In this document: positions 23,236-44,424 of the stretch, in pieces
How positions within the stretch are numbered: position 1 is the stretch's first letter
Layout: the number at the start of each line of letters is the position of its first letter
Assembly: GCA_016927555.1 (NCBI GenBank)
Contig: JAFGML010000021.1
Coordinates: forward strand, 9,508 to 73,507
DNA: 64,000 nucleotides
Source of the DNA: Thermoplasmatota archaeon
GTDB taxonomy: Archaea > Thermoplasmatota > E2 > DHVEG-1
Direction: 5' to 3'
The notes under the pieces: model-generated
What the model saw: only the letters and a program-made list of their open reading frames with translations
What the model was told of the DNA's origin: nothing
Databases searched by the model: none
Program-made: the position numbers and the translations under genes

Positions 23236-24942
23236 ATGATGCAGAAAAAAACAATTCAAAAAGCAAGTACCTTAGTCCTGTTTCTGTGTTCTGTGATCCT
23301 CATAAGTTCAAGCCTGTGGCATCCCGTCCAAGGTATCTCTTCTGACGTAGATTCATCTCAACCATCGCTATCCTACCAACAACCACTTTCAGAAACCCTA
23401 GTCCTCCCGTCAGCGTTCAGCTGGCGTGACATCAACGGAGTGGATTTCACCACACCGATACGGTCTCAAAGTCCATACCCCAGCTGCGAATCATTTGCTC
23501 TCGTCGCTGCGGTAGAGACCATGGTGCAATATCAGGTTGGATATCCCTTCGGATGTGACCTCTCAGAAGCCCACCTCTTCTTCTACAGCGGCGGCAACAT
23601 CCAGTGGGGATCCTACCCAGAGAACGATACGAACTTTCTCCAAGAGTACGGCGTTCCCGATGATGCCTGTTGGCCCTATCCCTCCGACTTGTATCAGTAT
23701 CCGCTGAACACGACATCCCCTGACTGGAAGAACAGGACCGTGAAAATATCGAATTGGAGCTACCTGCCTGATGACCCTCTTGCCATTAAAAACGCGCTAG
23801 TCACCAATGGCCCCGTACCATCATACTTCCTCGTCTACCAGGATTTTCTGTACCACAAGAAAGGCATCTACCAACACCGCTGGGGAAAAGCCAGAGGCCC
23901 TCATTACATGGCAATCGTCGGATACAATGACGACCCGGGCTACTGGATCGTGAAGAACAGCTGGGGGACCTCCTACCAAGAGGACGGATGGGTGAAGATT
24001 AAGTACGGTGAATGTGGCATCGGCAGAAAATCCTTCTACCTCAACGGGGTGTATGGACACTTCCCGATCCTCTATGTTGATGATGATAACACCATGGGCC
24101 CCTGGGATGGGACACAGCAGTTCCCGTATCAGACCATTCAAGACGCGGTGAACCACGCATACAACGGCTATGCTATTTTCGTGTACAATGGGACCTACCA
24201 TGAACATGTGATCCTCAATAAGACACTACACGTACAGGGGGAGAATAAACAGACGACAGTCGTGGATGGAGGAGGAACCGGTGATGTGGTCACGGTGACT
24301 GTTCCCGGTGTCTCACTCTCAGAAATAACGGTGCAACACAGCGGCATGCAGACCTATGATGCAGGGATAAAAACACTGACGTTACGCTCCAACGTCACCA
24401 TAAAAGACTGCAACGTTCAACAGAATGCTATAGGCGTGTATCTTAACTACGCGTATGAAACCGCATGGAATATCGTGATTAACAATACATTGCAGCAGAA
24501 TACAAAAGGCCTCTACGCCCACTGGGCATACAGCAACCAAATCACAGGGAATACCATTGACTTTAACGATGAGATAGGCATTGAGATGGAACGCTGTGAG
24601 CTGGCGACAATTTCTGGAAATACGATTAGCAACAATGGAGAGTGCGGAATCTTCCTGAGGGGCGCTTCGAATACGAATGTCATCGATGGAAACTCAATTA
24701 AAAATAACACGGTTGGCGTGATGTTAACAGAATCAAAGAGAAACCGCATTATGGAGAACGATTTTATACAGAACGACGTGCACGCTGGGTTCGACAATGC
24801 GGTGTTCACCAGGTGGAGGGGCAACTACTGGGATGACTGGCCGCATATCAGGGCACGGATGATACGAGGAGTCATTGGCGGCCACCAACTCCCCTGGGTT
24901 GACTTCGACTGGCATCCTTCAAAAAAACCAGTTCTTCTCTAG
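23236..24942 (+). CDS. Secreted papain-like (C1) cysteine peptidase fused to parallel beta-helix repeats
   Basis: Signal peptide. C1 blocks SQSPYPSCESFA (Cys), HYMAIVGY (His) and WIVKNSWG (Asn/Trp). The C-terminal half has periodic N-rich repeats (NTI..N..GI.L...SN) typical of NosD/pectate-lyase-like beta-helices. Confidence 0.75.
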   Translation: MMQKKTIQKASTLVLFLCSVILISSSLWHPVQGISSDVDSSQPSLSYQQPLSETLVLPSAFSWRDINGVDFTTPIRSQSPYPSCESFALVAAVETMVQYQVGYPFGCDLSEAHLFFYSGGNIQWGSYPENDTNFLQEYGVPDDACWPYPSDLYQYPLNTTSPDWKNRTVKISNWSYLPDDPLAIKNALVTNGPVPSYFLVYQDFLYHKKGIYQHRWGKARGPHYMAIVGYNDDPGYWIVKNSWGTSYQEDGWVKIKYGECGIGRKSFYLNGVYGHFPILYVDDDNTMGPWDGTQQFPYQTIQDAVNHAYNGYAIFVYNGTYHEHVILNKTLHVQGENKQTTVVDGGGTGDVVTVTVPGVSLSEITVQHSGMQTYDAGIKTLTLRSNVTIKDCNVQQNAIGVYLNYAYETAWNIVINNTLQQNTKGLYAHWAYSNQITGNTIDFNDEIGIEMERCELATISGNTISNNGECGIFLRGASNTNVIDGNSIKNNTVGVMLTESKRNRIMENDFIQNDVHAGFDNAVFTRWRGNYWDDWPHIRARMIRGVIGGHQLPWVDFDWHPSKKPVLL

Positions 24943-25059: not shown

Positions 25060-25527
25060 ATGAACGAGATACACTACAGGCCTATTGGCATCATCCATTC
25101 TCCGTTTACCGAACCACAAGGAACACCTATTCAACCAGCCAGTGGTCGAGGTGTGAAGGGAACCGTCGAGCTGTTCCCGGCGTACGTGGGAGGACTGCTG
25201 GATATCGAGGGGTTCTCCCATCTCATCCTGCTGTACCATTTCCATCGCTCGACGAGCTTCTCGCTACGCGCTTGCCCGTACCTCGATGACACCCCACATG
25301 GTGTGTTTGCGATCCGCAGCCCACGACGACCCAATCCCATTGGTCTATCTGTTGTCCGTCTTGTATCAGTTGATGACAATATCCTACATGTGCAGGATCT
25401 CGATATCATTGATGGCACACCCCTGTTGGATATCAAACCCTTTGTGCCAGCGTTTGATGCTGCAGACGAGATACGGATAGGCTGGCTGGAGGGTCGTATC
25501 AAACATCTTTCTAGAAAAACAGCATAA
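25060..25527 (+). CDS. trmO: tRNA (t6A37) methyltransferase TrmO/TsaA family
   Basis: YaeB/TsaA blocks IGIIHSPF, RSPRRPNPIGLSVVRL, DIIDGTPLLDIKPF. ATG 25060 follows GGAGG. Confidence 0.8.
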   Translation: MNEIHYRPIGIIHSPFTEPQGTPIQPASGRGVKGTVELFPAYVGGLLDIEGFSHLILLYHFHRSTSFSLRACPYLDDTPHGVFAIRSPRRPNPIGLSVVRLVSVDDNILHVQDLDIIDGTPLLDIKPFVPAFDAADEIRIGWLEGRIKHLSRKTA

Positions 25528-25578
25528 CAAGAATGCTTCTTTATAAAATGGAGGTCGATATCTCCAAAATTTTTAGTT

Positions 25579-25992
25579 CTAGTCTTTAATTTTGTAAGAG
25601 TAGGTGATCTCTACTGCTTTGTGAAGCATAGATGAAATAGGACAGTACGTGTCTCGTGAAAGGTGTATGGCACGCTCAAGGTCATCGCTTCTTAGATTTT
25701 TGCCAGCAAAGACGTATTCGACGTGTATTTTTGTAAAGACTTTCGGGTGCTCAGGTGCTCGTTCTCCAGTGAGATGGACTTCAAAGTGTTGTAATTCTAC
25801 ACGTTTCTTTCTAAGGATAGATGCCACATCACTTGCCGTGCAACTCCCAAATGAGATGAGTAGCAGCTCCATGGGTCGTGCTGCAGCTTCTGAGCCGAAA
25901 AATGCTTTGGGTCCATCGATGGTCACCCAGTGATTGCTATCTGCTTTTCCTATAAAGGTTACTCCTTCAACTTGCTTTACTGTAACCTGCAT
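25579..25992 (-). CDS. OsmC/Ohr family peroxiredoxin-like protein
   Basis: Both conserved Cys contexts (SFGSCTASD and DTYCPIS), 137 aa. Confidence 0.75.
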   Translation of the reverse strand: MQVTVKQVEGVTFIGKADSNHWVTIDGPKAFFGSEAAARPMELLLISFGSCTASDVASILRKKRVELQHFEVHLTGERAPEHPKVFTKIHVEYVFAGKNLRSDDLERAIHLSRDTYCPISSMLHKAVEITYSYKIKD

Positions 25993-25998
25993 AACATT

Positions 25999-26973
25999 TC
26001 ATCTCCTCTTGGTGCTCTCCTTTTTAAATTTACGTATATAGAATTTTTTGTTTTTATATTCTGTTTCTACGATCTTTCCTTGGGTTACAAGGTCTTCGAT
26101 GACCTCCCAGCGTTCACCCGTCTTTTTCAGCAGCTCGGTTATCCCGTCTTCGCGTAGGGGATGAACCGCTGTAATGCTCAAGATATCCTCAGCTAGGTTT
26201 CCTGTTGATGAAAAAGCATTTCCTTCATACCCAGTGATGAGCTCGACATTGATACCTTTTTCATGAAAAATTTGGTAGGCCGAAGTGAGCGTCTCCTCGT
26301 CTGCTGGTTCTACCCATTGTTCAGCAGGTGGTCGTGTTGGAATGGAGAGATAGCTTTTTTTGGGATGTAACGTTGTAATAAAATCAGCTATGTTTTCAAG
26401 TTCATCTACAGAATCGTTCACACCTTTAATGATCATACTCTCAGTTGCTAGTTCACCTTGAAATGTTGTTGAAAACAGTGTTATACCCTGTAAGATTTTC
26501 TCTAGTGTGAGGGATTTGTGTGCTCTGTTCACTCTCCGCCAAACATCGTGGCGTATGGCATCAATTTTTACAGACACCCAATCAGCATTCGATACATCTT
26601 CACGAACATTATCTCTCCAGAGAAGGGAAGCATTGGTAATAACTGCAACTTTGATTCCTAACGACTTGACACGTTCTATTTCTTTTCCCAAATTGATGTC
26701 TAAGGTCGGTTCTCCATCAGGAACAAACGTTAAATAATCGATTGGTTCTTTTTTCTCTACGGTTACGTGAACTTTTCGTTGTACCTCTTGAAATATTTTC
26801 TCTACGTCATAAAACGCTTGTCGTTCACCTTGCATCTTTAAAGTTCTTCCCAGCTGACAATAGAGACATGCATAGGTGCAGATTTTTGGCGGGATGTTGT
26901 TGATTCCAATGCTCTTGCCTAAACGCCGCGAGGGAACCGGACCAAATGCTATGCTCGTTTGATCTCGCCTCAT
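25999..26973 (-). CDS. Radical SAM protein
   Basis: N-terminal FGPVPSRRLGKSIGINNIP..CTYACLYCQLG (CxxxCxxC). Substrate unknown. Confidence 0.75.
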   Translation of the reverse strand: MRRDQTSIAFGPVPSRRLGKSIGINNIPPKICTYACLYCQLGRTLKMQGERQAFYDVEKIFQEVQRKVHVTVEKKEPIDYLTFVPDGEPTLDINLGKEIERVKSLGIKVAVITNASLLWRDNVREDVSNADWVSVKIDAIRHDVWRRVNRAHKSLTLEKILQGITLFSTTFQGELATESMIIKGVNDSVDELENIADFITTLHPKKSYLSIPTRPPAEQWVEPADEETLTSAYQIFHEKGINVELITGYEGNAFSSTGNLAEDILSITAVHPLREDGITELLKKTGERWEVIEDLVTQGKIVETEYKNKKFYIRKFKKESTKRR

Positions 26974-27584
26974 CCTTTTTCCCCTTCAATAACGTATAAA
27001 CTAGCTATAGCTCTATCGCTAGTGTTCGTGACTGTGTGGTCTAGTATACCTAAGAAGTATTCCTCAGTGGTGATGGAAAAATAGTGTGATATCGTGCTTT
27101 TCATGTTGGTTGTGTTGGTATGCTTTTTGTTCTTCCGTATGTAGGAATTTGTATCGCTATACTTCTCTTGGTAATAACGAGAATGGGTATTGAGGAGCAG
27201 GACCAGCAGCAGTCCATTTTTCCTGAGGACCCTGTGTGCCTCCTGGATGGTGTGTTGAGTGTTTTCGATGAACTCTAATGCCGTGACATAGACGACGGCA
27301 TCAAAGCTTTCGTCTTTAAACTCAAGGTGTTCGGCATCACCGTAAACAAGAGTAACACCGTGTGATGCCTGTGTAATCATTTCTTTTGAACGATCAAGAC
27401 CTATGACCGTCATTTCTGGGTGGTGCCATTGAAGCTGTGCCTCCAGCAATGCAGGGCCGCAACCGATGCTCAACACGTGTGTCCGACCTCGTAATTTCTT
27501 CTCAACATAGTGTGTCTCTTCATCCAATATTTTTTTACCGAACGGGGTGCTGTAAAACTTGATGTATTGTTGTACTTTGTTCAT
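26970..27584 (-). CDS. Class I SAM-dependent methyltransferase
   Basis: Motif I VLSIGCGPA and a downstream acidic post-I region. The stop of this gene overlaps the start of the downstream radical SAM gene by 4 nt. Confidence 0.7.
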   Translation of the reverse strand: MNKVQQYIKFYSTPFGKKILDEETHYVEKKLRGRTHVLSIGCGPALLEAQLQWHHPEMTVIGLDRSKEMITQASHGVTLVYGDAEHLEFKDESFDAVVYVTALEFIENTQHTIQEAHRVLRKNGLLLVLLLNTHSRYYQEKYSDTNSYIRKNKKHTNTTNMKSTISHYFSITTEEYFLGILDHTVTNTSDRAIASLYVIEGEKG

Positions 27585-27602
27585 ATGTTGTGCTTCACGT
27601 TA

Positions 27603-27965
27603 TTATTTGTCAAACTGGTGTATGATATCCAGAAGAATGAAACGGTGACAGGGGTGTTTTCCACAGTAGCAATACAGGTAGACATCCTGTGTTCTCGCCA
27701 GTTCCTTTATCTCACGTAGTTTCTGAATCACTTCAGGGTTGGATTCGACTTCCTTCCTATATCGGTTCTCAAAATCAGTGTGTACCCATGCATTCTGTCT
27801 TGCCTCTGCTTCAGCCATCCCTGAGTCCATCAGCGTACTTTTCCTCTCATTGAATTCTTTTAACAGGGTCTCTGATGGTGAAAAAACACTTGGGTATCCC
27901 ACCGGTATTTTAATGGCCTCTTTTGGCAGAGTCTTCAGCTTTGCTACGTACGTTTCTTTCAACAT
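27603..27965 (-). CDS. DUF488-like small protein
   Basis: The C-terminal LYCYCGKHPCHR motif and the SPSETLLKEF block resemble DUF488. Confidence 0.45.
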   Translation of the reverse strand: MLKETYVAKLKTLPKEAIKIPVGYPSVFSPSETLLKEFNERKSTLMDSGMAEAEARQNAWVHTDFENRYRKEVESNPEVIQKLREIKELARTQDVYLYCYCGKHPCHRFILLDIIHQFDK

Positions 27966-28046
27966 GTTCTTGTGAGGAGCTTGTGGTCGTGACTCTTTTA
28001 GCCCTCTCCTTCGTATCTTGTTCTGGTTTAAGGTGCTACTCTCGTT

Positions 28047-28697
28047 TTAGATTTCAGCAACCTTCCCAACACCACCAGGAGTGTACGCCTGTGGATACCG
28101 CTTTTGTATCTCTCGTGTATGTTGCGTACAATGACAGGGGCAAATATACTCTAAACCGTCTAATATTGAAAAATGGGTAAACCCATGCAACCCGCCGATG
28201 AGCCCGTTGACAGGACCATATTGTTGTGCGACACGAAACATGTCTTCCACACCACAGTGAGAACAACCTGCGAGAACGTACAACCCTTTTGTACCCTCAA
28301 GAATTAAGGCTTGCTCATCGACAGGCCCGTGACTCAGTCGTCCTGTCGTATACACTCCCTCGGTAATCTTCTGAGACTCCTCAGGTACTATACAGCGCAT
28401 GTTTTCTTTGGGGAGTTGATGTGCTAAACGATACACTGTAGCATCCTGCACCTCAGGTGCAAGCGCCTGCAACCCGCCGGTATGATCCCCGTGCTCATGC
28501 GACAACACAACCGTACGAATCGTGTGGGGATCTATCCTCAGAATCTCCATATTGTGCAGGAGAATACTGCCTTGTGCTCCAGTATCAAAGAGAAGCGTAT
28601 GTTCTGCTGTTTGAATGAGGCACGAGAAGCCCCAATCAGCTTTCAATCCCATGCCTCTCGTAGAAACTTCATTATCATACACGATCGTCAGTTTCAT
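28047..28697 (-). CDS. MBL-fold metallo-hydrolase (COG1237-like)
   Basis: N-terminus MKLTIVYDNE..GLKADWGFSCLI and metal motif LSHEHGDHTGG. Confidence 0.75.
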   Translation of the reverse strand: MKLTIVYDNEVSTRGMGLKADWGFSCLIQTAEHTLLFDTGAQGSILLHNMEILRIDPHTIRTVVLSHEHGDHTGGLQALAPEVQDATVYRLAHQLPKENMRCIVPEESQKITEGVYTTGRLSHGPVDEQALILEGTKGLYVLAGCSHCGVEDMFRVAQQYGPVNGLIGGLHGFTHFSILDGLEYICPCHCTQHTREIQKRYPQAYTPGGVGKVAEI

Positions 28698-28708
28698 TTT
28701 AGAGGACC

Positions 28709-29152
28709 TCAGTCCTTCGTCGTCTTTTTCTGATACTGCTCAAGAGCTTTCTTCAAGGTAGTGACTGCAAGAACAGTACAATGTATATGTTCGCTTGGGA
28801 GACCTTCTAACGCATCCAGGAGCTGCTGAGGAGTCACAGCAGTCGCTTGTTGGAGTGTTTTTCCTTTGATCATCTTGAGGAGCATATTGCCGGAAGCAAG
28901 TGTCGCTCCACATCCATCTGTCCAAAACCGTGCATCCTGTATCTTCCCGTCCCTGATGTTGACGGTAATTCTCATGGTATCACCGCATGGTCCTTTGATT
29001 TCGCCAACTGAATCCGGATGTTGGAGAACCCCGAAATACGTAGGGTTGCGATACTCTCTGAGTACCACTGGTGAGTACGTCTGTCTTTCATCCTCCTCGA
29101 TTGTGTTCTGCAAATCCTTTAGCATCGTGTCAAATTCATCTTCATCTTCCAT
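28709..29152 (-). CDS. IscU/NifU N-terminal-like Fe-S scaffold protein
   Basis: Three scaffold Cys contexts (GPCGD, DGCGA, HC). ATG 29152 behind GAGGT is preferred over 29236, which would overlap the upstream gene by 95 nt. Confidence 0.7.
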   Translation of the reverse strand: MEDEDEFDTMLKDLQNTIEEDERQTYSPVVLREYRNPTYFGVLQHPDSVGEIKGPCGDTMRITVNIRDGKIQDARFWTDGCGATLASGNMLLKMIKGKTLQQATAVTPQQLLDALEGLPSEHIHCTVLAVTTLKKALEQYQKKTTKD

Positions 29153-30008
29153 ACAGTACCTCTGTGATGTTCTGCCACATGGCACGGATATCTCGTGTGA
29201 GTGGACCATCTGAGAATTCAATGATGCTTTGCTCATGAATCATGGCTTGGGTGATGGTGAGATCGTAAGGCAGGGTTCCAACGAGTCGAAGAGCGTGATC
29301 CTTGCAATACTGCTCGATGGCTCTGGTGTTGTCGTCGTTAATCGATGCTTTATTGATGCAGACGACAGCAGGGATGTGGAAATGCAAGGCGACCGCATGC
29401 ACTCGCTCAAGGTCATGGATCGCTGAGTAGGTTGGCTCAGTGACAATCACCACGAGGTCGACACCGGTAATCGATGCGATCACTGGGCAGCCGATGCCGG
29501 GGGGGCCATCGATGAGGACTAGGTCTTTGTTCAAGGTACCAGCGAGGTCTGTCGCCATGTTCCGCACCATGGTCACCAATTTTCCTGAGGCTTCCTCAGC
29601 AGTATGCAGCACCGCATGAGCCATGGGACCAAATCGCGTCTGGGAGCGGTACGCTACCCCTGACTCTCGGTCCACCATCGTAATCGCATGAACAGGGCAG
29701 ACGTAGGCGCACACACCGCAGCCTTCGCAGGAGTCAGCATGAACACGGATGTCATCGTCTATCGCCTGGAAATGACAGGATTTCACGCACTGGTTACAAC
29801 GGGTGCACTGTGCTTCATCGATGTGTGCAAGCTTGAGACCTGAAAACAACTGGGTGTCCTGTACAACTGGTTTGAGAATGAGGTGCAAATCGGCAGCGTC
29901 GACATCACAGTCTGCAAGTACAGCCTTGTTCGCCAGGGCCGCAAACGCTGCTGTCAGAGACGTTTTGCCTGTGCCGCCTTTGCCGCTGATGACTGCTAAC
30001 TGCTTGAT
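29142..30008 (-). CDS. MinD/ParA-type P-loop ATPase with an inserted 2x[4Fe-4S] ferredoxin domain (copy 2); proposed ATC start
   Basis: The deviant Walker A AVISGKGGTGKTS lies upstream of the track's ORF start (TTG 29888). The frame has no ATG/GTG/TTG before it. ATC 30008-30006 follows GGAGGTGA by 4 nt and gives (M)KQLAVISGKGG. Ferredoxin motifs CTRCNQCVKSC and CEGCGVCAYVCP. Confidence 0.7.
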   Translation of the reverse strand: MKQLAVISGKGGTGKTSLTAAFAALANKAVLADCDVDAADLHLILKPVVQDTQLFSGLKLAHIDEAQCTRCNQCVKSCHFQAIDDDIRVHADSCEGCGVCAYVCPVHAITMVDRESGVAYRSQTRFGPMAHAVLHTAEEASGKLVTMVRNMATDLAGTLNKDLVLIDGPPGIGCPVIASITGVDLVVIVTEPTYSAIHDLERVHAVALHFHIPAVVCINKASINDDNTRAIEQYCKDHALRLVGTLPYDLTITQAMIHEQSIIEFSDGPLTRDIRAMWQNITEVLYGR

Positions 30009-30841
30009 GCTGTCACCTCCTGCTGTACTGTCTGGTACATGGTGTGAAACTTGGATTGCCAGGGCTCCATCTGTTCAACAAACACTATGCCTTGTGAGTA
30101 CAACCGTGCGATTTCTTCGCTGTGAGGGATTTTGAGATGAACCGGTATGTTTTCTGTGTTACAGTACTGCTCCACGGCATCATTCCCTATTCCATCGCGG
30201 TTGATGATCACACCAAAGGGGAGATGCTGATGACGCAGCACAGCGACCATGAGCTTGAGGTCGTGGAGACCAAAGGGTGTTGGCTCCGTGACAAGAAGGG
30301 TGTAGTCTGCGCCTCGAACTGCCTCGATGACTGGGCAGGCAGTTCCCGGTGGTGCATCGATGATGATGTGTTTCGTAGGATCTATCTTTTTTTTCAGTGC
30401 TTTCAGTAAGGGAATCGCTTGTGCTTCCCCAATGTTTAACAGCCCCTGATACAGCTCTACGGTTCCACGGGTGCCATACTCAATGGTTCCTATGATCCTC
30501 TTCTTCCACGTAATCGCCTGACGTGGACAGACAAGGGCACATCCGCCGCAGGAGTGACACAGCTCAGGGAAGACCAGAACCTTCTGGGGCACCACTGCTA
30601 AGGCGTTGTACATGCAGAACGCTGCGCACTTCCCACAGTAATCACATTTCGTGGTATCAACCTCAGGGGTGTCCACCGTAACAGTCTCCTGTGTATAGAG
30701 AGGAGCTTTGAGAAAGACGTTGATGTTGGGTTCTTCGACATCGCAGTCAACGAGGCAGGCTGACGCTAGGCTTAACGCGAGATTCAAGGCAACAGTGGTC
30801 TTGCCTGTCCCACCTTTTCCGCTGGCGACTGCAATAATCAT
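29996..30841 (-). CDS. MinD/ParA-type P-loop ATPase with an inserted 2x[4Fe-4S] ferredoxin domain (copy 1)
   Basis: MIIAVASGKGGTGKTT Walker A from ATG 30841. Ferredoxin motifs CDYCGKCAAFC and CHSCGGCALVCP. The track's longer ORF would overlap the upstream gene. Confidence 0.8.
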   Translation of the reverse strand: MIIAVASGKGGTGKTTVALNLALSLASACLVDCDVEEPNINVFLKAPLYTQETVTVDTPEVDTTKCDYCGKCAAFCMYNALAVVPQKVLVFPELCHSCGGCALVCPRQAITWKKRIIGTIEYGTRGTVELYQGLLNIGEAQAIPLLKALKKKIDPTKHIIIDAPPGTACPVIEAVRGADYTLLVTEPTPFGLHDLKLMVAVLRHQHLPFGVIINRDGIGNDAVEQYCNTENIPVHLKIPHSEEIARLYSQGIVFVEQMEPWQSKFHTMYQTVQQEVTASSS

Positions 30842-30884
30842 TTTAATACTCTTCCTTTTTATTTTTATGATTAAAGTTGTACTA

Positions 30885-31283
30885 TTAACAATGACCTCCA
30901 TGATGATCATGGTGATGGTGATCCCGGAATGCATGTTGACCACAAGCATCGTCTGCTCCTGCTTTATGAAGCGTTCCATTTTGAAAGGCAGTAATTGCAT
31001 CTTTCACAGTCCCTGATGCGCCAATGTACACCTCAATGCCGATTTGTTCAAACATTGCTATGGCTCGTCGTCCAAGTCCTCGGCAGACAAGTACTGTGAC
31101 ACCTTCCTTTGCCATAATCTCAGGAGGGTAGCCGACGCCTCCAAGATGTTCACTGGTGTTGGGAACCACCCGAACGTCGTTGGTTTGTAAATCAACAATA
31201 GTGTAGGTAGGTACTCTGCCGAAGTGCTCACCGACCGTGTCATTCAATCCCTGATTGCCGTTGGTAGGGATGCAAACCTTCAT
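30885..31283 (-). CDS. NifX/NifB-C-terminal-like (dinitrogenase FeMo-cofactor-binding fold) protein with a His-rich tail
   Basis: MKVCIPTNG...HFGRVPTYTIVD family signature. C-terminus HAFRDHHHHDHHGGHC. Confidence 0.7.
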   Translation of the reverse strand: MKVCIPTNGNQGLNDTVGEHFGRVPTYTIVDLQTNDVRVVPNTSEHLGGVGYPPEIMAKEGVTVLVCRGLGRRAIAMFEQIGIEVYIGASGTVKDAITAFQNGTLHKAGADDACGQHAFRDHHHHDHHGGHC

Positions 31284-31657
31284 GGGATGTGTCCTCCTAA
31301 ACCAAAATGACTTGCTTGGGTGGCTGCGTGTACTTCCTGTAATTTTCCTTTGCTGTACTGCTCAAGGACTTCTTGTATAGTACCAGAAGCACCGCTGAAG
31401 ACTTTGATGCCCGCAGCATGCAGGACGTTGAAGGCGTTTGGTCCGACGTTTCCGGTAATCACTGCGCCGACCTTTTCGTTGGTAACGATTTGAGCCGCTT
31501 GAATCCCAGCTCCACCAGATGCGATGGTACTTTCATTGTCAATGGTTTTCACCTGCTTGCTTTCTGTGTCGATGATGAGAAAGTAGGGACATCGACCGAA
31601 GCGTTGATCAACACTTGCGTGAAGATCTTTGCCTGTTGATGTGATACATATTTTCAT
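31280..31657 (-). CDS. NifX/NifB-C-terminal-like protein
   Basis: MKICITSTG...RFGRCPYFLIID signature. 4-nt overlap with the next gene. Confidence 0.7.
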   Translation of the reverse strand: MKICITSTGKDLHASVDQRFGRCPYFLIIDTESKQVKTIDNESTIASGGAGIQAAQIVTNEKVGAVITGNVGPNAFNVLHAAGIKVFSGASGTIQEVLEQYSKGKLQEVHAATQASHFGLGGHIP

Positions 31658-32007
31658 TGTTTACCTCCAGTGCTACTAAATTCTTCTATTGCTTTTTGTA
31701 CTTCGACGATATACGTCATCGCTGGGCCACCGCCCATAAGAATGGCAACGACGGCTACTTCATAGATTTCTTCTTTTGTTGCTCCTGCTTTTAATGCTTT
31801 TTCAACATGGATGGCGATACAGTATTTGCATCGTGCGGTTATCGCTGTTCCCACAGCAACAAGTTCTTTTGTCTTTGCATCTAACACGCCTTCTTTCAAC
31901 GTCGATCCCATGAATGCTTTAAAATGTCGCAAGGTTTCGGGTTGATGTTTTGACAACTCTTCCATCATGCTAATGACATAATCAACTGACTCTTTCATTT
32001 CTCCCAT
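31654..32007 (-). CDS. Carboxymuconolactone decarboxylase / AhpD-like family protein
   Basis: AhpD-like CxxC context ARCKYCIAIH, 117 aa. Confidence 0.7.
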   Translation of the reverse strand: MGEMKESVDYVISMMEELSKHQPETLRHFKAFMGSTLKEGVLDAKTKELVAVGTAITARCKYCIAIHVEKALKAGATKEEIYEVAVVAILMGGGPAMTYIVEVQKAIEEFSSTGGKQ

Positions 32008-32180
32008 AGTCCACCTCTTGGCGTATTCATATGTTCTCGTATGACGATAACTGTGCCGTCTTTTGAATATATTTTGTTATAAGATGAGGAATCACTGACA
32101 CCTTTGAATCCTCGAGATAGAAGGAAGCGTTTGATTTGTTCTACCTCTGTTGATTTGTGATTCTTTTGATGTTTATTCAT
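31995..32180 (-). CDS. Small hypothetical protein (weak HicA-like pattern)
   Basis: ATG 32180 lies 8 nt after AGGTGGA. 61 aa. IKRFLLSRGF...DGTVIVIREH loosely resembles the YcfA/HicA fold. Confidence 0.35.
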   Translation of the reverse strand: MNKHQKNHKSTEVEQIKRFLLSRGFKGVSDSSSYNKIYSKDGTVIVIREHMNTPRGGLWEK

Positions 32181-32209
32181 GGTATTCTTCCACCTGTGTA
32201 TACTAATGG

Positions 32210-32413
32210 TTAACCTCGAGTCATCGGTGTTCCACATTTCGGGCATTTTTTGTGAAAGCATGGTACAGCCAGTTCATGAGGCTCGGTGTAACCGCAATTT
32301 GGACATCCACATTCACCAGTAGGACCTTGACGGAAACCTCCGCCAAGACCGCGACCGCGCCTTCCACCAACGGGTCCTTGACCATAAGGTCCTGTTCCGT
32401 CTCTACGTGGCAT
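32210..32413 (-). CDS. DUF5320-like Gly/Arg-rich protein with a C-terminal zinc ribbon
   Basis: [14 protein letters not shown]...RGRGLGGG, then CGCPNCG...CPKCG. ATG 32413 lies 8 nt after AGGTGA. Confidence 0.65.
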
Positions 32414-32492
32414 GTTCTTTTTCACCTTTTTTCCTTTCTGTTTTTCTTAGTTCTTCTTCTGTTTGTTATTATAATAACGTCAATATAGTAGC

Positions 32493-32681
32493 TTATTTTC
32501 GTGTCATCATTGCACCGCACTGAGGGCATTTAATTGTGTAGCACGGTACCCCCCGTTGGTGCAGTTGGCGGTACCCGCAATTGGGACAGAGACACTCACC
32601 GCTGGGGCCCATGCCGTATCCTCCACCGAGACCGCGACCGCCGTAGCGGCCGAAGCCTCCCCCTCCGCGCCCTCGTGGCAT
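32493..32681 (-). CDS. DUF5320-like Gly/Arg-rich protein with a C-terminal zinc ribbon (paralog)
   Basis: MPRGRGGGGFGRYGGRGLGGG, then CLCPNCG...CPQCG. Clear paralog of 32210-32413. Confidence 0.65.
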   Translation of the reverse strand: MPRGRGGGGFGRYGGRGLGGGYGMGPSGECLCPNCGYRQLHQRGVPCYTIKCPQCGAMMTRK

Positions 32682-32690
32682 GTCTTTTGT

Positions 32691-33506
32691 TCAGCTCCTG
32701 TGTTGAACCATGTGTTCAATTTTTTCTACAATAGCGTGAAATGACTTTCCAGCCGCGGTGGATGCTTGTTCCTTTAGGAAGGGTATTCCGGTATCTCCTG
32801 TGGTGACAATTTCGGGGTCAAGGGGAATAGTCCCAAGAAACGGGACTGATAAATCCATGGAGGCTTTGAGCCCACCGCCTGTTTTGAAGAGATCAATGGT
32901 CTTGTGACAATGCGGGCAGGTCAGCCCACTCATGTTTTCTATGATGCCAATGACCGGCATGTTCATTCGTTTCACAAAGTTGATGGATTTTCGGACGCTG
33001 ACCAGTGCGACGTCTTGTGGAGTAGTCACGATAACTGCTCCATCGCTGTGTGGGATGAGCTGTGCGATGCTGAGGGGTTCGTCTCCAGTCCCTGGTGGCA
33101 GGTCAACGATTAAGTAGTCCAGTTCACCCCAGTCGACGTCTCCGATGAACTGCTTTATTGCTCCCATCTTCATGGGCCCTCGCCAGATCACAGGGGAATC
33201 AGTATCAGACAGGAAGAACCCCATGGACATGACTTTCAGATAGGGTGTGACAGTGATAGGGTTAAATCCTGTCGCAGTCGCTGTTGGTTTTTTGTCTTCG
33301 ATGCCAAGTATCTTTGGGATGGTAGGCCCATGAAAATCGCTGTCGAGTAATCCTACAATGTGTTTTTTTTGTGCAAGGCCGTAGGCGAGGTTGACAGCAA
33401 CCGTGCTTTTTCCTACACCGCCTTTGCCACTCATCACGATGATGGTATGATGTATTTTCCCGAGGTTCTTGGTGATTTTTTCGTCATTTTGTGCGTTTTT
33501 TTCCAT
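32691..33506 (-). CDS. Mrp/NBP35/ApbC family Fe-S cluster carrier ATPase
   Basis: Walker A VMSGKGGVGKST, the CPHC motif and the DLPPGTGDE block. ATG 33506 lies 8 nt after GAGGTGA. Confidence 0.85.
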   Translation of the reverse strand: MEKNAQNDEKITKNLGKIHHTIIVMSGKGGVGKSTVAVNLAYGLAQKKHIVGLLDSDFHGPTIPKILGIEDKKPTATATGFNPITVTPYLKVMSMGFFLSDTDSPVIWRGPMKMGAIKQFIGDVDWGELDYLIVDLPPGTGDEPLSIAQLIPHSDGAVIVTTPQDVALVSVRKSINFVKRMNMPVIGIIENMSGLTCPHCHKTIDLFKTGGGLKASMDLSVPFLGTIPLDPEIVTTGDTGIPFLKEQASTAAGKSFHAIVEKIEHMVQHRS

Positions 33507-33575
33507 TCTGATTCTCACCTCAGTGGTGTGTGTAATGATTGATAGAGAGAAAGAAGGAGAAGTGGTGGTGTCTTA

Positions 33576-33917
33576 TTATGGTTCTTGTTTTTTTTCTTCG
33601 CTGAGTTCTTTGAGTCGCTGTTTTATTGCGGTCATGTCATCTTCAAGTGCTTTGAGGCTGTCTTGTAGGTAATGTTGTTCTTCTTCTTTATTTGGTGCTG
33701 GGGGACTGTAGGGGTAGTAGGGGTCTGGGTAGGGGTACTCGTGTCTCCACCAGAATCCTCTGCCGCGTCCTTGGAATCCTCGTCCCCATCCTCGACCGCC
33801 TCCTCTCCCGTAACCAGGAGTGGCGTAGCCGGGATGTGGGTAGCCGGCACAGTAGCCAAGTGCTCTGCCGGTCCGGGGTCCGCGTCCCCAGGGTCCTGTT
33901 CTATCGCCGCCAGGCAT
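33576..33917 (-). CDS. DUF5320 family protein (Gly/Arg-rich N-terminus, C-terminal coiled coil)
   Basis: MPGGDRTGPWGRGPRTGRALGYCAG plus RG repeats, then the heptad-like LQDSLKALEDDMTAIKQRLKEL. ATG 33917 lies 8 nt after AAGGAGGTGA. Confidence 0.7.
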   Translation of the reverse strand: MPGGDRTGPWGRGPRTGRALGYCAGYPHPGYATPGYGRGGGRGWGRGFQGRGRGFWWRHEYPYPDPYYPYSPPAPNKEEEQHYLQDSLKALEDDMTAIKQRLKELSEEKKQEP

Positions 33918-34095
33918 GTGTTCGTTCACCTCCTTTGATTTTTTTGTTCATGGTCAGTACTACATGAGGTCTTCATTATAAATGTTGGCATAATAATTAT
34001 TATGTAAAATGCATTTTTCATCTATTTTTTATAGGAAATGTTAATATAGAAGGTCTTTATTTGTGATATTTAATTTGATTTCTGGAAATGATCGT

Positions 34096-34668
34096 ATGGC
34101 ACGCCTGAAGAGTTCGCTTGATGAAATCGATAAGAAAATCATTACACTGTTACATGATACGCACGACTTGTCCCAGGAGGAGATAGCTAAAAAAGTCAAG
34201 TTGTCACAACCCTCGGTAGCGATGCGGATTAAAAAATTGAAGGACCGGGGTGTCCTTGAACAGGTCACGGGTGTGAACCTGAATAAAGTCGGGTTGTACC
34301 TCGCGAAGGTGATGGTGCGCACGACCAATACCACGAAACTGTTGAACATGTTTCGAGGGTGTCCTTTCTTCTTGAATGGGTTTGTGATTTCCGGCAGTGA
34401 TAATTTGATGTTGCTGTTTGCTGGGGAGGACTTAGCCTCTCTGGAGTCCATCATTGACTGTCGTATTCGCCCAGATGAGAATGTGCAGAGCGCAGATTTC
34501 AACATCATCATTTCTAGTATAAAGGATCTGGTCATGCCGCTGAAAATCGTAGAGCGGGGGTTGAACAAGCCACCATGTGGGGTGGAGTACAAATCCTGTC
34601 CAGCGTATGCGGAGAACCGGTGTTTTGGCTGTCCAGCAACGAGTCGGTACAAAGGATCATTTTGGTGA
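34096..34668 (+). CDS. Lrp/AsnC-like transcription regulator with a C-terminal four-Cys tail
   Basis: HTH block IDKKIITLLHDTHDLSQEEIAKKVKLSQPSVAMRIKKLKDRGVL, a RAM-like middle domain, and the tail CGVEYKSCPAYAENRCFGC. Confidence 0.7.
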   Translation: MARLKSSLDEIDKKIITLLHDTHDLSQEEIAKKVKLSQPSVAMRIKKLKDRGVLEQVTGVNLNKVGLYLAKVMVRTTNTTKLLNMFRGCPFFLNGFVISGSDNLMLLFAGEDLASLESIIDCRIRPDENVQSADFNIIISSIKDLVMPLKIVERGLNKPPCGVEYKSCPAYAENRCFGCPATSRYKGSFW

Positions 34669-34806: not shown

Positions 34807-36042
34807 GTGGATCTCGTCGTACTCGGTATCCTTGGTGGTGTCGGTGCTATCGGTTTTTACATGGCCTGGAACATTGGTGCAAACGATGTGGCAAACTCCA
34901 TGGCCACGGCCGTAGGAGCACGAGCGATTACACATAGACAAGCAGTCCTCATTGCCGGAGTATTAACTTTTTTAGGTGCAGTGCTTGTGGGTTCAAACGT
35001 CACTGAGACGATTAAAGGAAATATCGTTGATCCCTGTCAAATTGCAGATGCACATATTTTGATGTTAGGGTTCGTTGCCTCCCTTCTTGCAGCATCAGTG
35101 TTTGTCACCCTTGCGACGTGGAGAGAAATGCCGATCTCCACAACCCATTCTATTATTGGTGCATTAGTGGGCTTTGGTATCGTAGCAGGAGGGACCACAT
35201 GTATCAACTGGGGGAAGCTGGCTGAAGTTGCCGCTAGCTGGGTGCTTTCACCCCTTGTGGGTTGTGTCTTAGCTTTTTTTGTGTTTAAGATTATTGTGAA
35301 GTTAATTTTTTCAAAACAAGACCCTGTGGAAGCTGCAAAGATTGTTGGCCCAGGGATTATTGGTGTAACCGTGTGTATAATTGTTATTTCTCTGTTAACA
35401 AAAACAAACCTTGGGATGATGATAGGGGTAACAAATCTATTTTTAGTTTTTGGTATTGCTATTGGCTTTGGCGTCTGTTTCACGGTTCTTTCTGCAGTTC
35501 CATTTCGAAGAATCCAATCACGTCATCCAGATGATTATGAGACTGTTGAGTTACTCTTTCGAAAACTACAGATTGGGACATCGTGTTTTGTCGCCTTTTC
35601 TCATGGGGCAAACGATGTAGCCAATGCTATTGGACCGGTCGCTGGGATCTTATCGCTCACCAGCACAGGAAGTCTGAATCCTCTTGAGTCTACACCTACC
35701 GTTTTACTCGCGCTAGGTGGCATCGGTATTGCTCTTGGGGCGATGACCTGGGGGCATAAGGTGATGAAAACGGTTGGTGGTCGTATTACCAGCCTGACGA
35801 ACACTCGAGGGTTTTCTGTTGATTTTGGAGCAGCGACCACGGTTCTCTTAGCGTCGATTCTCGGGTTGCCCATCTCTACATCTCATACTGTCGTAGGAGC
35901 AGTCATTGGCGTCGGGTTAGCAAAGGGGTTAGCTGCCATTGATCTCTCCGTGATCAAAAAGATCATTTACTCCTGGTTGTTGACGGTTCCTCTTGCCGCA
36001 GGCTTGTCAGCAATATTTTTTATACTCCTTCGCATGATATGA
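34807..36042 (+). CDS. pitA: Inorganic phosphate transporter, PiT (PHO4) family
   Basis: Duplicated GANDVAN motifs (N-terminal GANDVANSMATAVGA, C-terminal HGANDVANAIGP). Multi-TM. Confidence 0.85.
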   Translation: MDLVVLGILGGVGAIGFYMAWNIGANDVANSMATAVGARAITHRQAVLIAGVLTFLGAVLVGSNVTETIKGNIVDPCQIADAHILMLGFVASLLAASVFVTLATWREMPISTTHSIIGALVGFGIVAGGTTCINWGKLAEVAASWVLSPLVGCVLAFFVFKIIVKLIFSKQDPVEAAKIVGPGIIGVTVCIIVISLLTKTNLGMMIGVTNLFLVFGIAIGFGVCFTVLSAVPFRRIQSRHPDDYETVELLFRKLQIGTSCFVAFSHGANDVANAIGPVAGILSLTSTGSLNPLESTPTVLLALGGIGIALGAMTWGHKVMKTVGGRITSLTNTRGFSVDFGAATTVLLASILGLPISTSHTVVGAVIGVGLAKGLAAIDLSVIKKIIYSWLLTVPLAAGLSAIFFILLRMI

Positions 36043-36064
36043 GGGATGTTATGGACGTGAGATC

Positions 36065-36763
36065 ATGAGTAAAGATAAGGAGCACTTCCGGGTGCCTCTC
36101 TCTGAGACGTATCGGAGAAAATCCCCGTTTGACCAACTCTTGGACCACATGGGCAAGGTGCGAGAATGCATCCATTTACTCGGTGATGGGTTGATAAAAT
36201 ATTACACAGGCGACTATCAAGGGTTTTCTGAATTATCTGAGCGGGTGTCAACGTTTGAACATGAAGCAGATATTATTAAAGGGAATATTCGGAACCATCT
36301 GCCAAACTCCCTGCTCATGCCTGTCGATAAAGGCCGATTTCTTTGGGCATTACGAGAACAAGATGCTATTCTAGACCATGCGGAGAATCTCACCCAAATG
36401 TTAGATATGCGTCATACAAAGATACCAAAGGAGCTGCAGGCATTGTTCATTGACCATGCACGTTTGGTCATGGAGACGGTGAAAGCCATGGAAAATGCTG
36501 TGCAGAACATTCGAGACCTCATTGAATCAGGGTTTGTGAAGCGAGAACGTGAGCAAACAAAAACATTTATCCATAAAGTCCATGAGAAGGAGTACAACGC
36601 AGATCAGAAGAAATATGAACTCACGAAAGCCATCTATGCGTTAGAAAAGAAACTTGATCCCATGGATGAATACCACTTGTTAAAGATAGCTGATTGGGTG
36701 GATGATATCGCGGACCATGCAGAGAATGTCGCTGATTGGTTACGATCCATGATTGCCCGCTGA
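36065..36763 (+). CDS. DUF47 / PhoU-like Pit accessory protein
   Basis: Helical 232-aa protein directly downstream of pit. The FEHEADIIKGNIRNHL-type motif is typical of the DUF47 family. Confidence 0.7.
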   Translation: MSKDKEHFRVPLSETYRRKSPFDQLLDHMGKVRECIHLLGDGLIKYYTGDYQGFSELSERVSTFEHEADIIKGNIRNHLPNSLLMPVDKGRFLWALREQDAILDHAENLTQMLDMRHTKIPKELQALFIDHARLVMETVKAMENAVQNIRDLIESGFVKREREQTKTFIHKVHEKEYNADQKKYELTKAIYALEKKLDPMDEYHLLKIADWVDDIADHAENVADWLRSMIAR

Positions 36764-36771
36764 AATGATTT

Positions 36772-37767: not shown

Positions 37768-37812
37768 CTGAAGCACCGAAGCTTCTGTATTATCCTACGA
37801 TTCATAAGTATT

Positions 37813-37859
37813 TCTATAGGACTCTATATAGCCCATATGAATATATATACCTCTATAGA
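37813..37859. promoter_or_regulatory. Three TCTATA(G/T)A motif copies in the divergent phoU-abrB / pstS intergenic region
   Basis: TCTATAG at 37813, TCTATATA at 37823, TCTATAGA at 37852. Read directly. Confidence 0.5.
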
Positions 37860-37861
37860 CT

Positions 37862-38932: not shown

Positions 38933-38942
38933 AATCTGGATT

Positions 38943-40841: not shown

Positions 40842-40844
40842 TCC

Positions 40845-41699: not shown

Positions 41700-41709
41700 G
41701 TGAGAAGCT

Positions 41710-42845: not shown

Positions 42846-42903
42846 ATAGATCTAAGCATGAAAACTGGTGTTTTTTTCCGCTGATGAGCAGTAAGTATAT
42901 AGG

Positions 42904-42969
42904 TCTATATAGAAAATGGAGTTTATATTGATAATTTATTTATGTATAGAGAAAATAAAGATGTATAGA
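42904..42969. promoter_or_regulatory. TCTATATAGA palindrome plus two TATAGA half-sites upstream of AbrB-PhoU copy 2
   Basis: 10-bp perfect palindrome at 42904-42913. TATAGA at 42955-42960 and 42964-42969. Confidence 0.5.
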
Positions 42970-43096
42970 CGAACTAGTCCTAACTCAAGGAACTGGAGCG
43001 AGTACCTGTGGGGGACGTGGTCTCTCCAGCAAAAGACTTGACTGAGAGAAGCAGAGAATAGGCATGCGCAACTGCATGCGATTAGGGGAACTACAT

Positions 43097-44107: not shown

Positions 44108-44152
44108 AGTGTTCGTAAAGAGAAAAAGAAAAAAGGGTTGCAGACAGGGTTG

Positions 44153-44407: not shown

Positions 44408-44424
44408 AGTCGTGTCTGCTCTGC

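Follow-up and report, generated by a model that had tools for sequence, protein, structure and literature searches.

A Thermoplasmatota gene array with a probable archaeal version of the orp (orange protein) cluster at its core

We describe here an array of 16 genes in a Thermoplasmatota archaeon (GenBank assembly GCA_016927555.1), the core of which probably represents an archaeal version of the orp (orange protein) cluster. The array lies in a 64,000-nucleotide (nt) stretch of contig JAFGML010000021.1, referred to throughout as the window, where it takes up positions 25579-33917. All of its genes, named g1 to g16 in reading order, are on the minus strand, consecutive and tightly packed, and a regulator gene is divergent from them. 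The families that a preliminary description of this DNA had named for the 16 co-directional genes were all recovered by open reading frame (ORF) listing and family scans, and the divergent, Cys-tailed Lrp-like regulator indeed belongs to the HTH_AsnC family. The successive inter-gene distances from g1 to g16 are 57, 9, 67, 29, -13, -4, -4, 43, -13, -11, 11, 81, 18, -4 and 6 nt; the earlier statement that junctions mostly overlap or stay below 70 nt is right, with one gap of 81 nt between g12 and g13, in which no TATA-like box was seen. Motifs resembling Shine-Dalgarno (SD) sites, called as 5-mer matches to GGAGGTGA, are clear upstream of about 10 of the 16 genes, so that the strong SD sites described before are found for these but not for all genes.

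The identity of the core came from g2, g7, g8, g9 and g10. Gene g2 (32691-33518) encodes an Mrp/NBP35-type Fe-S carrier ATPase (PF10609, 2.6e-98) with the deviant Walker A motif GKGGVGKS and a CPHC motif. Its best NCBIfam model is NF041136, MrpORP, at 375 bits (221 bits for ApbC), and the match covers profile positions 2-252 of 365. The score is under the MrpORP cut-off of 450 bits because the C-terminal domain of the profile (positions 253-365) is missing from g2. This missing part is matched by two separate proteins of the array, g7 and g8, the latter over profile positions 265-364. Gene g7 (31280-31657; PF02579, 5e-28) encodes a tail-less NifX-like protein of the ORP/MTH1175 type, for which the best PDB match is MTH1175 (1.5e-25) and which also matches the orange protein (ORP) of Desulfovibrio gigas, 2WFB (3.8e-18). 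The second NifX-like protein, g8 (30885-31283; PF02579, 1e-20), ends in HHHHDHHGGHC and is of the TM1816 type, matching 1T3V/1O13 (TM1816) at 1e-21, native His-rich end included. This His-rich end of g8, RDHHHHDHHGGHC, aligns with the native HDHHHHEHH terminus of TM1816 and is not an oddity of the cloning-tag kind. Genes g9 (29996-30841; CbiA/ParA and Fer4 matches) and g10 (29142-30008) encode two paralogous MinD-type ATPases with an inserted ferredoxin region of two [4Fe-4S] motifs, the family of Orp3 and Orp4.

To compare the array with Desulfovibrio, we let proteins related to D. gigas ORP (2WFB) stand in for Desulfovibrio orp loci. The nearest of these relatives, 68-75% identical, stand in clusters ordered ORP, MinD-Fer4, MinD-Fer4, NifX and small Cys protein. 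We found that g7, g9, g10 and g8 are reciprocal, paralogue-specific best matches of the four core genes in two Desulfovibrio-like loci (L082 and L085), with 34-48% identity: g7 is 39-40% identical to ORP, g9 40-42% to the first MinD protein and g10 44-48% to the second, and g8 and the second NifX gene are each other's best match.

In Desulfovibrio, the orp cluster comprises DVU2103-2109 (PMC6345978, PMC8359166), with orp5-orp4-orp3 and orp7-orp8-orp9 laid out around the regulator OrpR (PMC8359166). Orp3 and Orp4 are MinD-type ATPases with two [4Fe-4S] ferredoxin motifs each, Orp5 is a small Fe-S protein, and Orp8 is the orange protein itself, NifX-like and carrying a non-covalent Mo-Cu sulfide cluster, which in D. 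gigas ORP is [S2MoS2CuS2MoS2]3- (PMC6345978). Orp3, Orp4, Orp5, Orp8 and Orp9 form a complex, MrpORP passes Fe-S to Orp3-Orp4-Orp8 in vitro, and fused and unfused forms are intermixed in the Mrp tree (PMC6345978). A raised redox potential switches off the orp operons via the Fe-S cluster of OrpR (PMC8359166). Archaeal homologues that are highly expressed, AF2378-2380 of Archaeoglobus, have been linked to the Desulfovibrio genes (PMC3949148).

The match to 2WFB, the gene order around ORP relatives and the reciprocal best matches argue that the array core is an orp cluster in which Orp9 is split. Homology and synteny match g7 to Orp8, g9 and g10 to the Orp3/Orp4 pair, and g2 together with g8 to the probable two domains of Orp9 (MrpORP), carried by separate genes, and by their position g3 and g4 would hold the place of the small Fe-S protein Orp5. 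The preliminary description knew of no function assigned to such neighbourhoods. It is true that the role is still called unclear in the ORP literature, but the core appears to be that of the biochemically characterised orp cluster.

That the arrangement is not a peculiarity of this genome came from a scan of one genome per GTDB species with an alignment of g9 relatives as the query, which gave 80 loci (L002-L081). Every locus ORF was mapped onto the window proteins, and the counts below refer to genes on the same strand and at most 6 kb from the first MinD gene. The loci span Thermoplasmatota, Bathyarchaeia, Altiarchaeota, methanogens, Dehalococcoidia, Omnitrophota, Desulfobacterota, Ignavibacteria, Zixibacteria and others. 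A second MinD gene is present in 77 of the 80 loci, and in 45 of 45 where the contig extends 5 kb to both sides. The two NifX-like genes are found in 63 (NifX1) and 58 (NifX2) loci, the small 6-Cys protein in 37, usually directly upstream of the first MinD gene, where Desulfovibrio has orp5 (PMC8359166), Mrp in 36, IscU in 31, the metallo-beta-lactamase (MBL) fold protein in 25 and DUF5320 in 22. The radical S-adenosylmethionine (SAM) gene recurs in 17 loci, up to 60% identical and often directly after the second MinD gene. Relatives of the methyltransferase (6 loci) and of OsmC (2 loci, 25% identical) are weak ones only, and the CMD, DUF488 and 61-amino-acid (61-aa) genes were found in none. 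Gene order is variable between lineages. Chance falls far short of explaining an arrangement whose gene set is met again, on a single strand, at 80 loci from unrelated phyla. The preliminary description was right to suggest a dedicated Fe-S/metal-sulfide module of anaerobes, with carrier, scaffold, cluster-binding NifX-like proteins and Fe-S ATPases. The core is also strongly conserved in sequence: g9 has at least 8000 homologues, 60-73% identical across phyla, and the identity of the MinD-ferredoxin/NifX module between archaeal and bacterial phyla is 50-70%. Several other genes recur next to the core in these loci and are absent from the window, namely DUF134 (26 loci), DUF89/ARMT1-like (11), DtxR/FeoA-like (9), FeoB (6) and ZIP (5).

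Our results show that IscU, MBL and radical SAM are genuine recurrent accessories of the core, and that five genes (61-aa, CMD, DUF488, OsmC and the methyltransferase) are local additions. The linkage is closer in near relatives. A Thermoplasmatota locus (L088) has IscU (67% identical) followed by MBL and, further on, DUF488 (75%), methyltransferase (57%) and radical SAM (62%), in the same order as in the array. In another (L087), the order is MinD, methyltransferase, radical SAM, the last 51% identical to g15, and the methyltransferases that adjoin the radical SAM gene are others than g14. In an Altiarchaeota locus (L008), the MinD pair is interspersed with methyltransferase, MBL and TrmO-like genes, and MBL stands between the two MinD genes. 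It had been considered beforehand that two sub-blocks of the array (33917-28047 and 27965-25579) might prove independent and freely shuffled in relatives. The outcome was mixed. The radical SAM gene, and DUF488-methyltransferase-radical SAM in close relatives, stay linked to the cluster, but OsmC, CMD and the 61-aa gene (L001 and L086 only) do not travel with the MinD-pair cluster and the order is variable.

The two ATPases g9 and g10 are 32% identical to each other, and both have a P-loop with the signature Lys and two CxxCxxCxxxC(P) motifs. Outside these ferredoxin motifs, three further Cys are invariant: C33 (within DCDVEEP), C169 (which follows the Walker B Asp by seven residues) and C227, of which C169 is presumably reminiscent of Cys132 of NifH. 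The AlphaFold model of g9 has a predicted local distance difference test score (pLDDT) of 81, with a ferredoxin insert of low confidence, and its Foldseek neighbours are archaeal MinD, FleN, ATPase-type HypB, ApbC, Cfd1 and Soj. NifH is not in the Foldseek top 50, and the Fer4_NifH profile gives 16.7 bits (cut-off 25), at the P-loop only. The 25 NCBIfam families listed for g9 and g10 include no nifH, DPOR or CfbC model, and it is for g2 alone that these models gave matches, weak ones confined to the P-loop. Because the profiles match only at the P-loop and the structural neighbours are MinD-type, the assignment of g9 and g10 to the NifH/CfbC family is unsupported, and so is the likeness to such reductases proposed earlier. 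An ATP-gated redox role of the MinD pair would still be a reasonable functional analogy. A PDB search found no solved structure of the MinD-ferredoxin subfamily.

The start of g10 deserves comment. There is no ATG, GTG or TTG between the in-frame TGA and the P-loop, the first TTG lying downstream of the P-loop, and an ATC at 30006-30008 sits 7 nt after GGAGG. Lacking a canonical start codon upstream of its P-loop, g10 must start at this ATC. The same ATC start is seen in an independent assembly (L001), and relatives have ATG, GTG or TTG there, with ATA in L004. Gene callers shorten g10 to 235-248 aa and thereby drop Walker A.

Upstream of the ATPase and NifX-like genes are two small Gly/Arg-rich genes, g3 (32493-32681) and its paralogue g4 (32210-32425, likely start ATG 32413), which are 61% identical over 36 aa. 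g3 carries six Cys in the pattern CxCPxCG-x4-H-x4-PC-x4-CPxCG, and g4 additionally has the DUF5320 N-motif and matches the DUF5320 profile weakly at positions 1-33. The family to which they belong (n=41) is built of an MPRGDGTGPxGQGP N-motif, which equals the start of the DUF5320 profile, a Gly/Arg-rich linker and a 6-Cys module, in which six Cys and one His are conserved in the 41 sequences. Six Cys and a His exceed the needs of a zinc ribbon and would be in line with the [2Fe-2S] cluster that the small ORP-operon protein reportedly binds (Maiti et al. 2016, as cited in PMC6345978). The DUF5320 protein itself, g1 (33576-33917; PF17253, 1.3e-29), comprises 113 aa from ATG 33917, a corrected start, and is laid out as the N-motif MPGGDRTGPWGRGP, a cationic Gly/Arg/aromatic-rich and Pro-rich segment and a coiled coil.

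Fusions connect these parts with the core. The DUF5320 N-motif and the 6-Cys module are combined in 12 relatives. Moreover, at many loci, at least nine in number (L012, L013, L029, L034, L044, L058, L063, L068 and L071), and next to MinD-ferredoxin pairs, NifX1 has a C-terminal extension with Gly/Arg-rich, Pro-rich and coiled-coil parts, and 9 of 9 proteins tested match both PF02579 and PF17253 above the cut-offs. These NifX1-DUF5320 fusions constitute Rosetta-stone evidence that g1 works with g7. A 112-aa GQGRG-repeat protein upstream of ORP in L082 was considered as a DUF5320 protein and rejected, as it has no profile match.

Downstream of the ATPases, g11 (28709-29152, most likely start 29152) encodes an IscU/NifU-N-type scaffold (PF01592, 5e-32). 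Besides the array, our Pfam scans took in 17 of the 20 flanking window ORFs of at least 250 aa. Of the housekeeping ISC set (IscS-IscU-IscA-HscBA-Fdx), only this IscU/NifU-N homologue was found in the window scans, with no other ISC or SUF genes, and neither the Pfam scans nor a tblastn search of the window with an aminotransferase from L086 gave a cysteine desulfurase or class V aminotransferase. Next is g12 (28047-28697; PF00753), an MBL-fold protein with PDB matches to 7DCK (2.5e-29) and to the COG1237-type 2P4Z (9e-12), the latter in agreement with its previous description as COG1237-like. It is followed by g13 (27603-27965), a DUF488-N3a protein (PF22751, 1e-10), and g14 (26970-27584), a class I SAM-dependent methyltransferase (Methyltransf_11, 1.5e-19). 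The radical SAM protein g15 (25999-26973; PF04055) belongs to an uncharacterised family: it has only the three Cys of the SAM motif, a single CxxxCxxC without auxiliary Cys, it matches no NifB model, and a PDB sequence search returned no relative. The last gene, g16 (25579-25992), is lineage-specific and encodes an OsmC-family, thiol peroxidase-like protein (PF02566, 1.9e-21; NF008009, 126 bits with a cut-off of 138).

The remaining two genes lie between g4 and g7. g6 (31654-32007) encodes a CMD/AhpD-like protein with the motif CKYCIAIH (CxxCxxxH; PF02627, 3.9e-24; TIGR00778 above cut-off). g5 (31995-32180) encodes the lineage-specific 61-aa protein, which has no Pfam or NCBIfam match; it is called as a gene in L001, and a 48% identical ORF of 51 aa follows a g4-like gene in L086. 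A HicA-like identity of g5 was rejected in the absence of a family match. We also rejected a role in arsenic or selenium methylation (AhpD/ArsM-type g6 and g14), as every score falls well short of its cut-off and g6 does not accompany the cluster elsewhere.

The regulator gene (34096-34668, plus strand) encodes HTH, RAM and Cys-tail parts, with Pfam matches HTH_24, HTH_AsnC and AsnC_trans_reg. Its start is most likely 34096, predicting 190 aa, with GTG 34063 as the alternative; homologues (n=334), 72-84% identical in Thermoplasmatota and one of them from Thermoplasmatales archaeon SCGC AB-540-F20, are annotated as 190 aa. The tail has the pattern PPCG-x5-C-x7-C-FG-C-P, and five Cys do not vary among 20 relatives: C89 and, in the tail, C161, C168, C176 and C179. 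The tail is disordered (pLDDT<50) in the AlphaFold model, which has a predicted template modelling score of 0.41. In two of the three neighbourhoods examined (L087 and L088), the regulator is again divergent from a DUF5320-Mrp-...-MinD-MinD array. In the third (L086), a 78% identical copy is divergent from the g4-like 6-Cys gene and the g5-like 51-aa gene, and next to this region (9345-9716) are genes for a pyridine-nucleotide disulfide oxidoreductase, an MBL protein, a Fer4-NifX fusion, a class V aminotransferase, a methyltransferase and ZIP, with no MinD pair. This neighbourhood suggests that the regulator may control a wider Fe-S/metal regulon. A regulator that is 26-30% identical is found in nine Bathyarchaeia loci, in divergent position upstream of Mrp and with the tail motif PC-x3-C-x2-C-x7-C-x2-CP-[AT]T-x2-Y[RK]G.

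Between the regulator gene and g1, a 14-bp perfect palindrome, ATAATAATTATTAT, lies at 33990-34003, with an AT-rich TATA-like box on either side. The window contains no second copy, even when 2 mismatches are allowed, and the core of the palindrome, TAATAATTAT, is kept at the same place in L088 and L086 and occurs as a variant in L087, the spacers having otherwise diverged. It is a candidate operator of the regulator. The regulator itself could be a metal, Fe-S or redox sensor that controls the operon, by analogy with OrpR, an Fe-S redox sensor, and with CopR, a metal sensor of the Lrp family that has a Cys domain and is divergent from copA (PMC7830388).

Taken as a whole, we argue that the core of the array is the archaeal (Thermoplasmatota) version of the orp cluster, enlarged by accessory and lineage-specific genes, and that its products form a complex handling metal sulfides; we put the probability of this orp reading at about 0.7. 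In the mechanism that we propose, IscU would assemble Fe-S clusters, and Mrp would deliver them to both MinD-type ATPases, in the way seen in vitro for MrpORP with Orp3/4/8. These ATPases would form an ATP-dependent, redox-active heterodimer, which together with the NifX-like proteins could hold and pass on labile, non-covalent metal-sulfide species. The cationic Gly/Arg-rich segments of the DUF5320 and 6-Cys proteins may be parts of the assembly, the radical SAM, MBL and methyltransferase proteins would act as recurrent helpers, and CMD and OsmC could be local redox-protection add-ons. The Lrp-type regulator would sense metal, Fe-S or redox state via its Cys tail and act at the palindrome between the two promoters, taking the role that the sigma54 activator OrpR has in Desulfovibrio. 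FeoB, DtxR-like and ZIP genes that adjoin such clusters in relatives provide an iron context and count in favour of the orp reading.

Several points weigh against it. In a BLASTP comparison, g4 and the small Cys protein of L082 are not significantly similar (E = 0.1), and the small Cys protein of the Desulfovibrio-like loci is a Zn_ribbon_8 protein, a type other than g3 and g4. Control by sigma54 and OrpR and the fused architecture of MrpORP are absent at the array, and instead of two divergent operons, all 16 genes are on one strand next to an Lrp/AsnC regulator. To our knowledge, archaea have no sigma54. Such control of two divergent operons characterises the Desulfovibrio locus and not the protein complex as such. 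Moreover, the 61-aa, CMD, DUF488, OsmC and, largely, g14 methyltransferase genes are not conserved with the cluster in distant taxa, and the 16-gene unit is therefore a local composite. Lastly, co-transcription, complex formation, metal content and the ligand of the regulator are what we infer for the array.

Ranked by their support, the alternatives run from an iron-sulfide store through thiometallate handling, cell division and chance to nitrogenase-like cofactor synthesis. The first is a narrower form of the orp reading, in which the NifX-like proteins and the DUF5320 and 6-Cys proteins would nucleate and wrap an anionic, thioferrate-like Fe-S polymer in the manner of IssA of Pyrococcus, which the MinD pair, Mrp and IscU would load or turn into [4Fe-4S] clusters to be delivered. 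We regard it as possible, if only tentatively. MTH1175, the best PDB match of g7, has been placed in the clade of IssA (PMC5524996). The 70-aa tail of IssA, proposed to wrap anionic thioferrate, has 7 cationic and 14 aromatic residues, 15 Gly, 11 Pro and 1 Cys at a pI of 10.7 (PMC5524996), and residues 1-76 of g1 nearly equal this composition with 10 cationic residues (Arg/Lys), 15 aromatic residues, 20 Gly, 13 Pro, 1 Cys and a pI of 10.1; this likeness is one of composition only and was taken from the published figures. The NifX1-DUF5320 fusions repeat the layout of a globular domain plus tail, genes for iron transport and regulation adjoin such clusters, and two proteins of the IssA clade with neighbouring locus tags rise in Methanococcus voltae grown on FeS2 (PMC9431491). 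However, the order of segments differs from that of the IssA tail, where a Pro-rich part precedes the cationic, aromatic and Gly-rich one, and DUF5320 adds a coiled coil, and g7 and g8 lack a tail of the IssA type (pI 9 or higher, with Gly making up 20% or more of the final 40 residues), the 20-aa tail of g7 having a pI of 6.3 and the His-rich tail of g8 a pI of 6.5. Furthermore, ORP complexes have come without evidence of thioferrate: D. gigas ORP was isolated with Mo-Cu, and MrpORP domains bind ordinary Fe-S (PMC6345978). The first ten codons given by the IssA primers (MKIAIPTNGG) resemble the N-terminus of g8, but the stretch is too short to be of use. Extended to ORP-type clusters at large, the idea would make them an ATP- and redox-driven iron-sulfide store, the anaerobe's counterpart of ferritin, with IssA-like tails acting in trans and, in archaea, Cys-tailed Lrp control; we consider this generalisation doubtful.

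It is also conceivable, though unlikely, that the NifX-like proteins bind Mo- or W-sulfide, and possibly Cu, and that the array handles thiometallates for detoxification or for supply to Mo/W enzymes. The homology of g7 to the D. gigas ORP with its Mo-Cu cluster (PMC6345978) and the suggestion that the homologues of Archaeoglobus fulgidus serve molybdopterin oxidoreductases (PMC3949148) point in this direction, and g15 matches a radical SAM maturase model of tungsten enzymes, but weakly, at 38.8 bits and far below the cut-off of 380. Against it, neither the scanned window ORFs nor the annotated relatives yielded a Mo/W transporter or pterin gene, and the transport genes that recur as neighbours are iron and divalent-metal systems.

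Cell division or positioning, with the MinD-like ATPases mainly as spatial regulators, is suggested by their closest structural relatives, MinD, FleN and Soj, and by the polar localisation of MrpORP and the morphological defects of mutants in Desulfovibrio (PMC6345978, PMC8359166), a link that its authors call indirect or unproven (PMC8359166). We find such a role quite improbable for the array, as it contains no MinC/MinE, FtsZ, Cdv or other division genes and none are repeatedly found in the 80 neighbourhoods, the steady companions have roles in cluster binding and Fe-S biogenesis, and each ATPase has eight ferredoxin Cys besides the three further invariant Cys.

A mere juxtaposition of housekeeping IscU and Mrp with redox and SAM enzymes in one direction, with no dedicated system behind it, would explain why the local additions are not conserved with the cluster in distant taxa and why gene order varies, IscU and Mrp being general-purpose families. 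For the core, this is largely refuted by synteny, the core set being found on one strand in 80 loci of both domains. In addition, L008 has accessory genes inserted between its MinD genes, fusions join NifX with DUF5320 and Mrp with NifX, two archaeal phyla have kept the regulator together with the cluster, and IscU stands here without a cysteine desulfurase or other ISC/SUF genes. We consider chance a very improbable explanation of the whole. Synthesis of a NifB-co-like cluster by the radical SAM protein, NifX carriers and an ATP-dependent reductase is scarcely credible: the inventory superficially mirrors NifB (radical SAM plus NifX domain) and NifH, and a radical SAM gene and one or more methyltransferase-like genes do recur with the cluster, but g15 has only the SAM-cluster Cys and no NifB match, the ATPases are not of the NifH type by profile or structure, and no nifHDK/EN-like genes, other nitrogenase families or Cfb genes were found among the window ORFs scanned, as the preliminary description had rightly concluded in setting nitrogen fixation aside.

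The flanks of the array are unrelated to it. On one side are a ZnuABC transporter, a secreted C1 peptidase and a single-domain TrmO/TsaA-like gene (25060-25527, plus strand; PF01980, 7e-39; TIGR00104 above cut-off), which is convergent with g16 and lies outside the array. Between the convergent stops of the two genes, a hairpin with T-runs on both strands (25549-25566) is a possible bidirectional terminator; its position alone is suggestive, since the promoter and terminator consensus scan, which is built for bacteria, gave an overall result not above chance. TrmO-like genes recur within 6 kb of the MinD pair in 10 of the 80 loci, which belong to unrelated phyla, and share the strand of the pair in 8; the loci include L004, L021, L037, L039, L041, L042, L049 and L052, and L008, where the gene lies between the MinD genes. 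This is far above expectation for a gene of about single copy and suggests a role besides or beyond tRNA methylation.

On the other side of the array is a large island for phosphate uptake (34807-51078) with Pit, PhoU_div, PhoU and two Pst-like ABC sets. It includes two AbrB(SpoVT)-PhoU fusion regulators (36772-37776 and 43064-44107), and among the permeases of the Pst sets are fused ones of unusual length, with 632 aa (38943-40841) and 1122 aa (46350-49718). The window also holds three secreted-type cysteine peptidases, a C10 peptidase (9-1361), a gingipain-like C25 peptidase with PKD (6802-9486) and a C1 peptidase fused to NosD/beta-helix (23236-24942). Taken with the regulator homologue from Thermoplasmatales archaeon SCGC AB-540-F20, they would point to a sediment lineage that degrades proteins, such as MBG-D/Thermoprofundales.

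Placing the array in the ORP family would let existing biochemistry inform many archaeal genes now called hypothetical. The orp cluster was defined in 2011, and the MinD-ferredoxin/NifX module is extremely widespread and ranks with the best conserved of the unexplained modules found in anaerobes. Our analysis provides handles on its function: the distinction of the core from its accessories, and the NifX-DUF5320 and N-motif/6-Cys fusions that point to physical partners. The compositional link to the IssA tail, the recurrent iron-uptake neighbours and the candidate archaeal regulator and operator are further handles.

How the array relates to known systems can be seen by comparing its parts. 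The regulator resembles CopR of Thermococcales and Sulfolobales in having an Lrp-family core and a C-terminal Cys module and in being divergent from its expected targets, which are orp-type genes here and a copper exporter in the case of CopR. The Cys of the tail are spaced C-x6-C-x7-C-x2-C (C-x3-C-x2-C-x7-C-x2-C in Bathyarchaeia), whereas the TRASH pattern is reportedly C-x2-C-x19-22-C-x3-C, and no Pfam match to TRASH or YHS was obtained for the regulator at E<=0.01. With the MinD/ParA/Mrp branch of SIMIBI proteins, which includes their best Foldseek and phmmer neighbours, g9 and g10 share the fold and the deviant Walker A motif with signature Lys, but they differ by an insert of about 60 residues with two [4Fe-4S] motifs after DCDVEEP and by C33, C169 and C227. 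The NifX-like proteins have PF02579 in common with NifX, NafY and the C-terminal domain of NifB, along with, as a general trait, the ability to hold labile metal-sulfur clusters that have no covalent ligands. They stand outside a nifB/nifEN/nifHDK context, and the nearest solved relatives of g7 and g8 are the orphans MTH1175, TM1290, TM1816 and PH0822 and ORP, rather than NifX or NafY. IssA (PF2025 of Pyrococcus furiosus) likewise shares the IPR003731/PF02579 domain, and both systems contain a cationic, Gly-, aromatic- and Pro-rich disordered segment. In the array, this tail-like segment is on the separate DUF5320 protein and is followed by a coiled coil, being fused to NifX in other taxa only, and MinD-type ATPases have not been reported as needed by IssA.

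The closest comparison is with the orp loci of D. vulgaris Hildenborough and D. alaskensis G20. Common to both are an ORP-type NifX protein, a MinD pair with two [4Fe-4S] motifs each, an Mrp/NBP35 protein with deviant Walker A and CXXC motifs, another NifX-like module ("Di-Nase"), a small Cys-rich protein encoded just upstream of the ATPases, a divergent regulator with conserved Cys, and the restriction to anaerobes. Unlike the Desulfovibrio loci, the array has Mrp and Di-Nase as separate genes, and it is read in one direction instead of as two divergent operons. Its regulator is an Lrp/AsnC protein with a Cys tail, whereas OrpR is a sigma54 PAS-AAA+ activator with a [4Fe-4S] cluster. It has two small 6-Cys, RG-rich proteins in contrast to the Zn_ribbon_8 type, adds a DUF5320 component, and carries IscU, MBL, radical SAM, methyltransferase, DUF488, CMD, OsmC and 61-aa genes as extras. 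The array is one more member of the family and not a new kind of system, which would not surprise a specialist in anaerobic Fe-S biology. What it adds to the published Desulfovibrio locus is the single-strand architecture with a split Orp9, the DUF5320 and 6-Cys parts, the IscU, MBL and radical SAM accessories, and the Lrp-type regulator.

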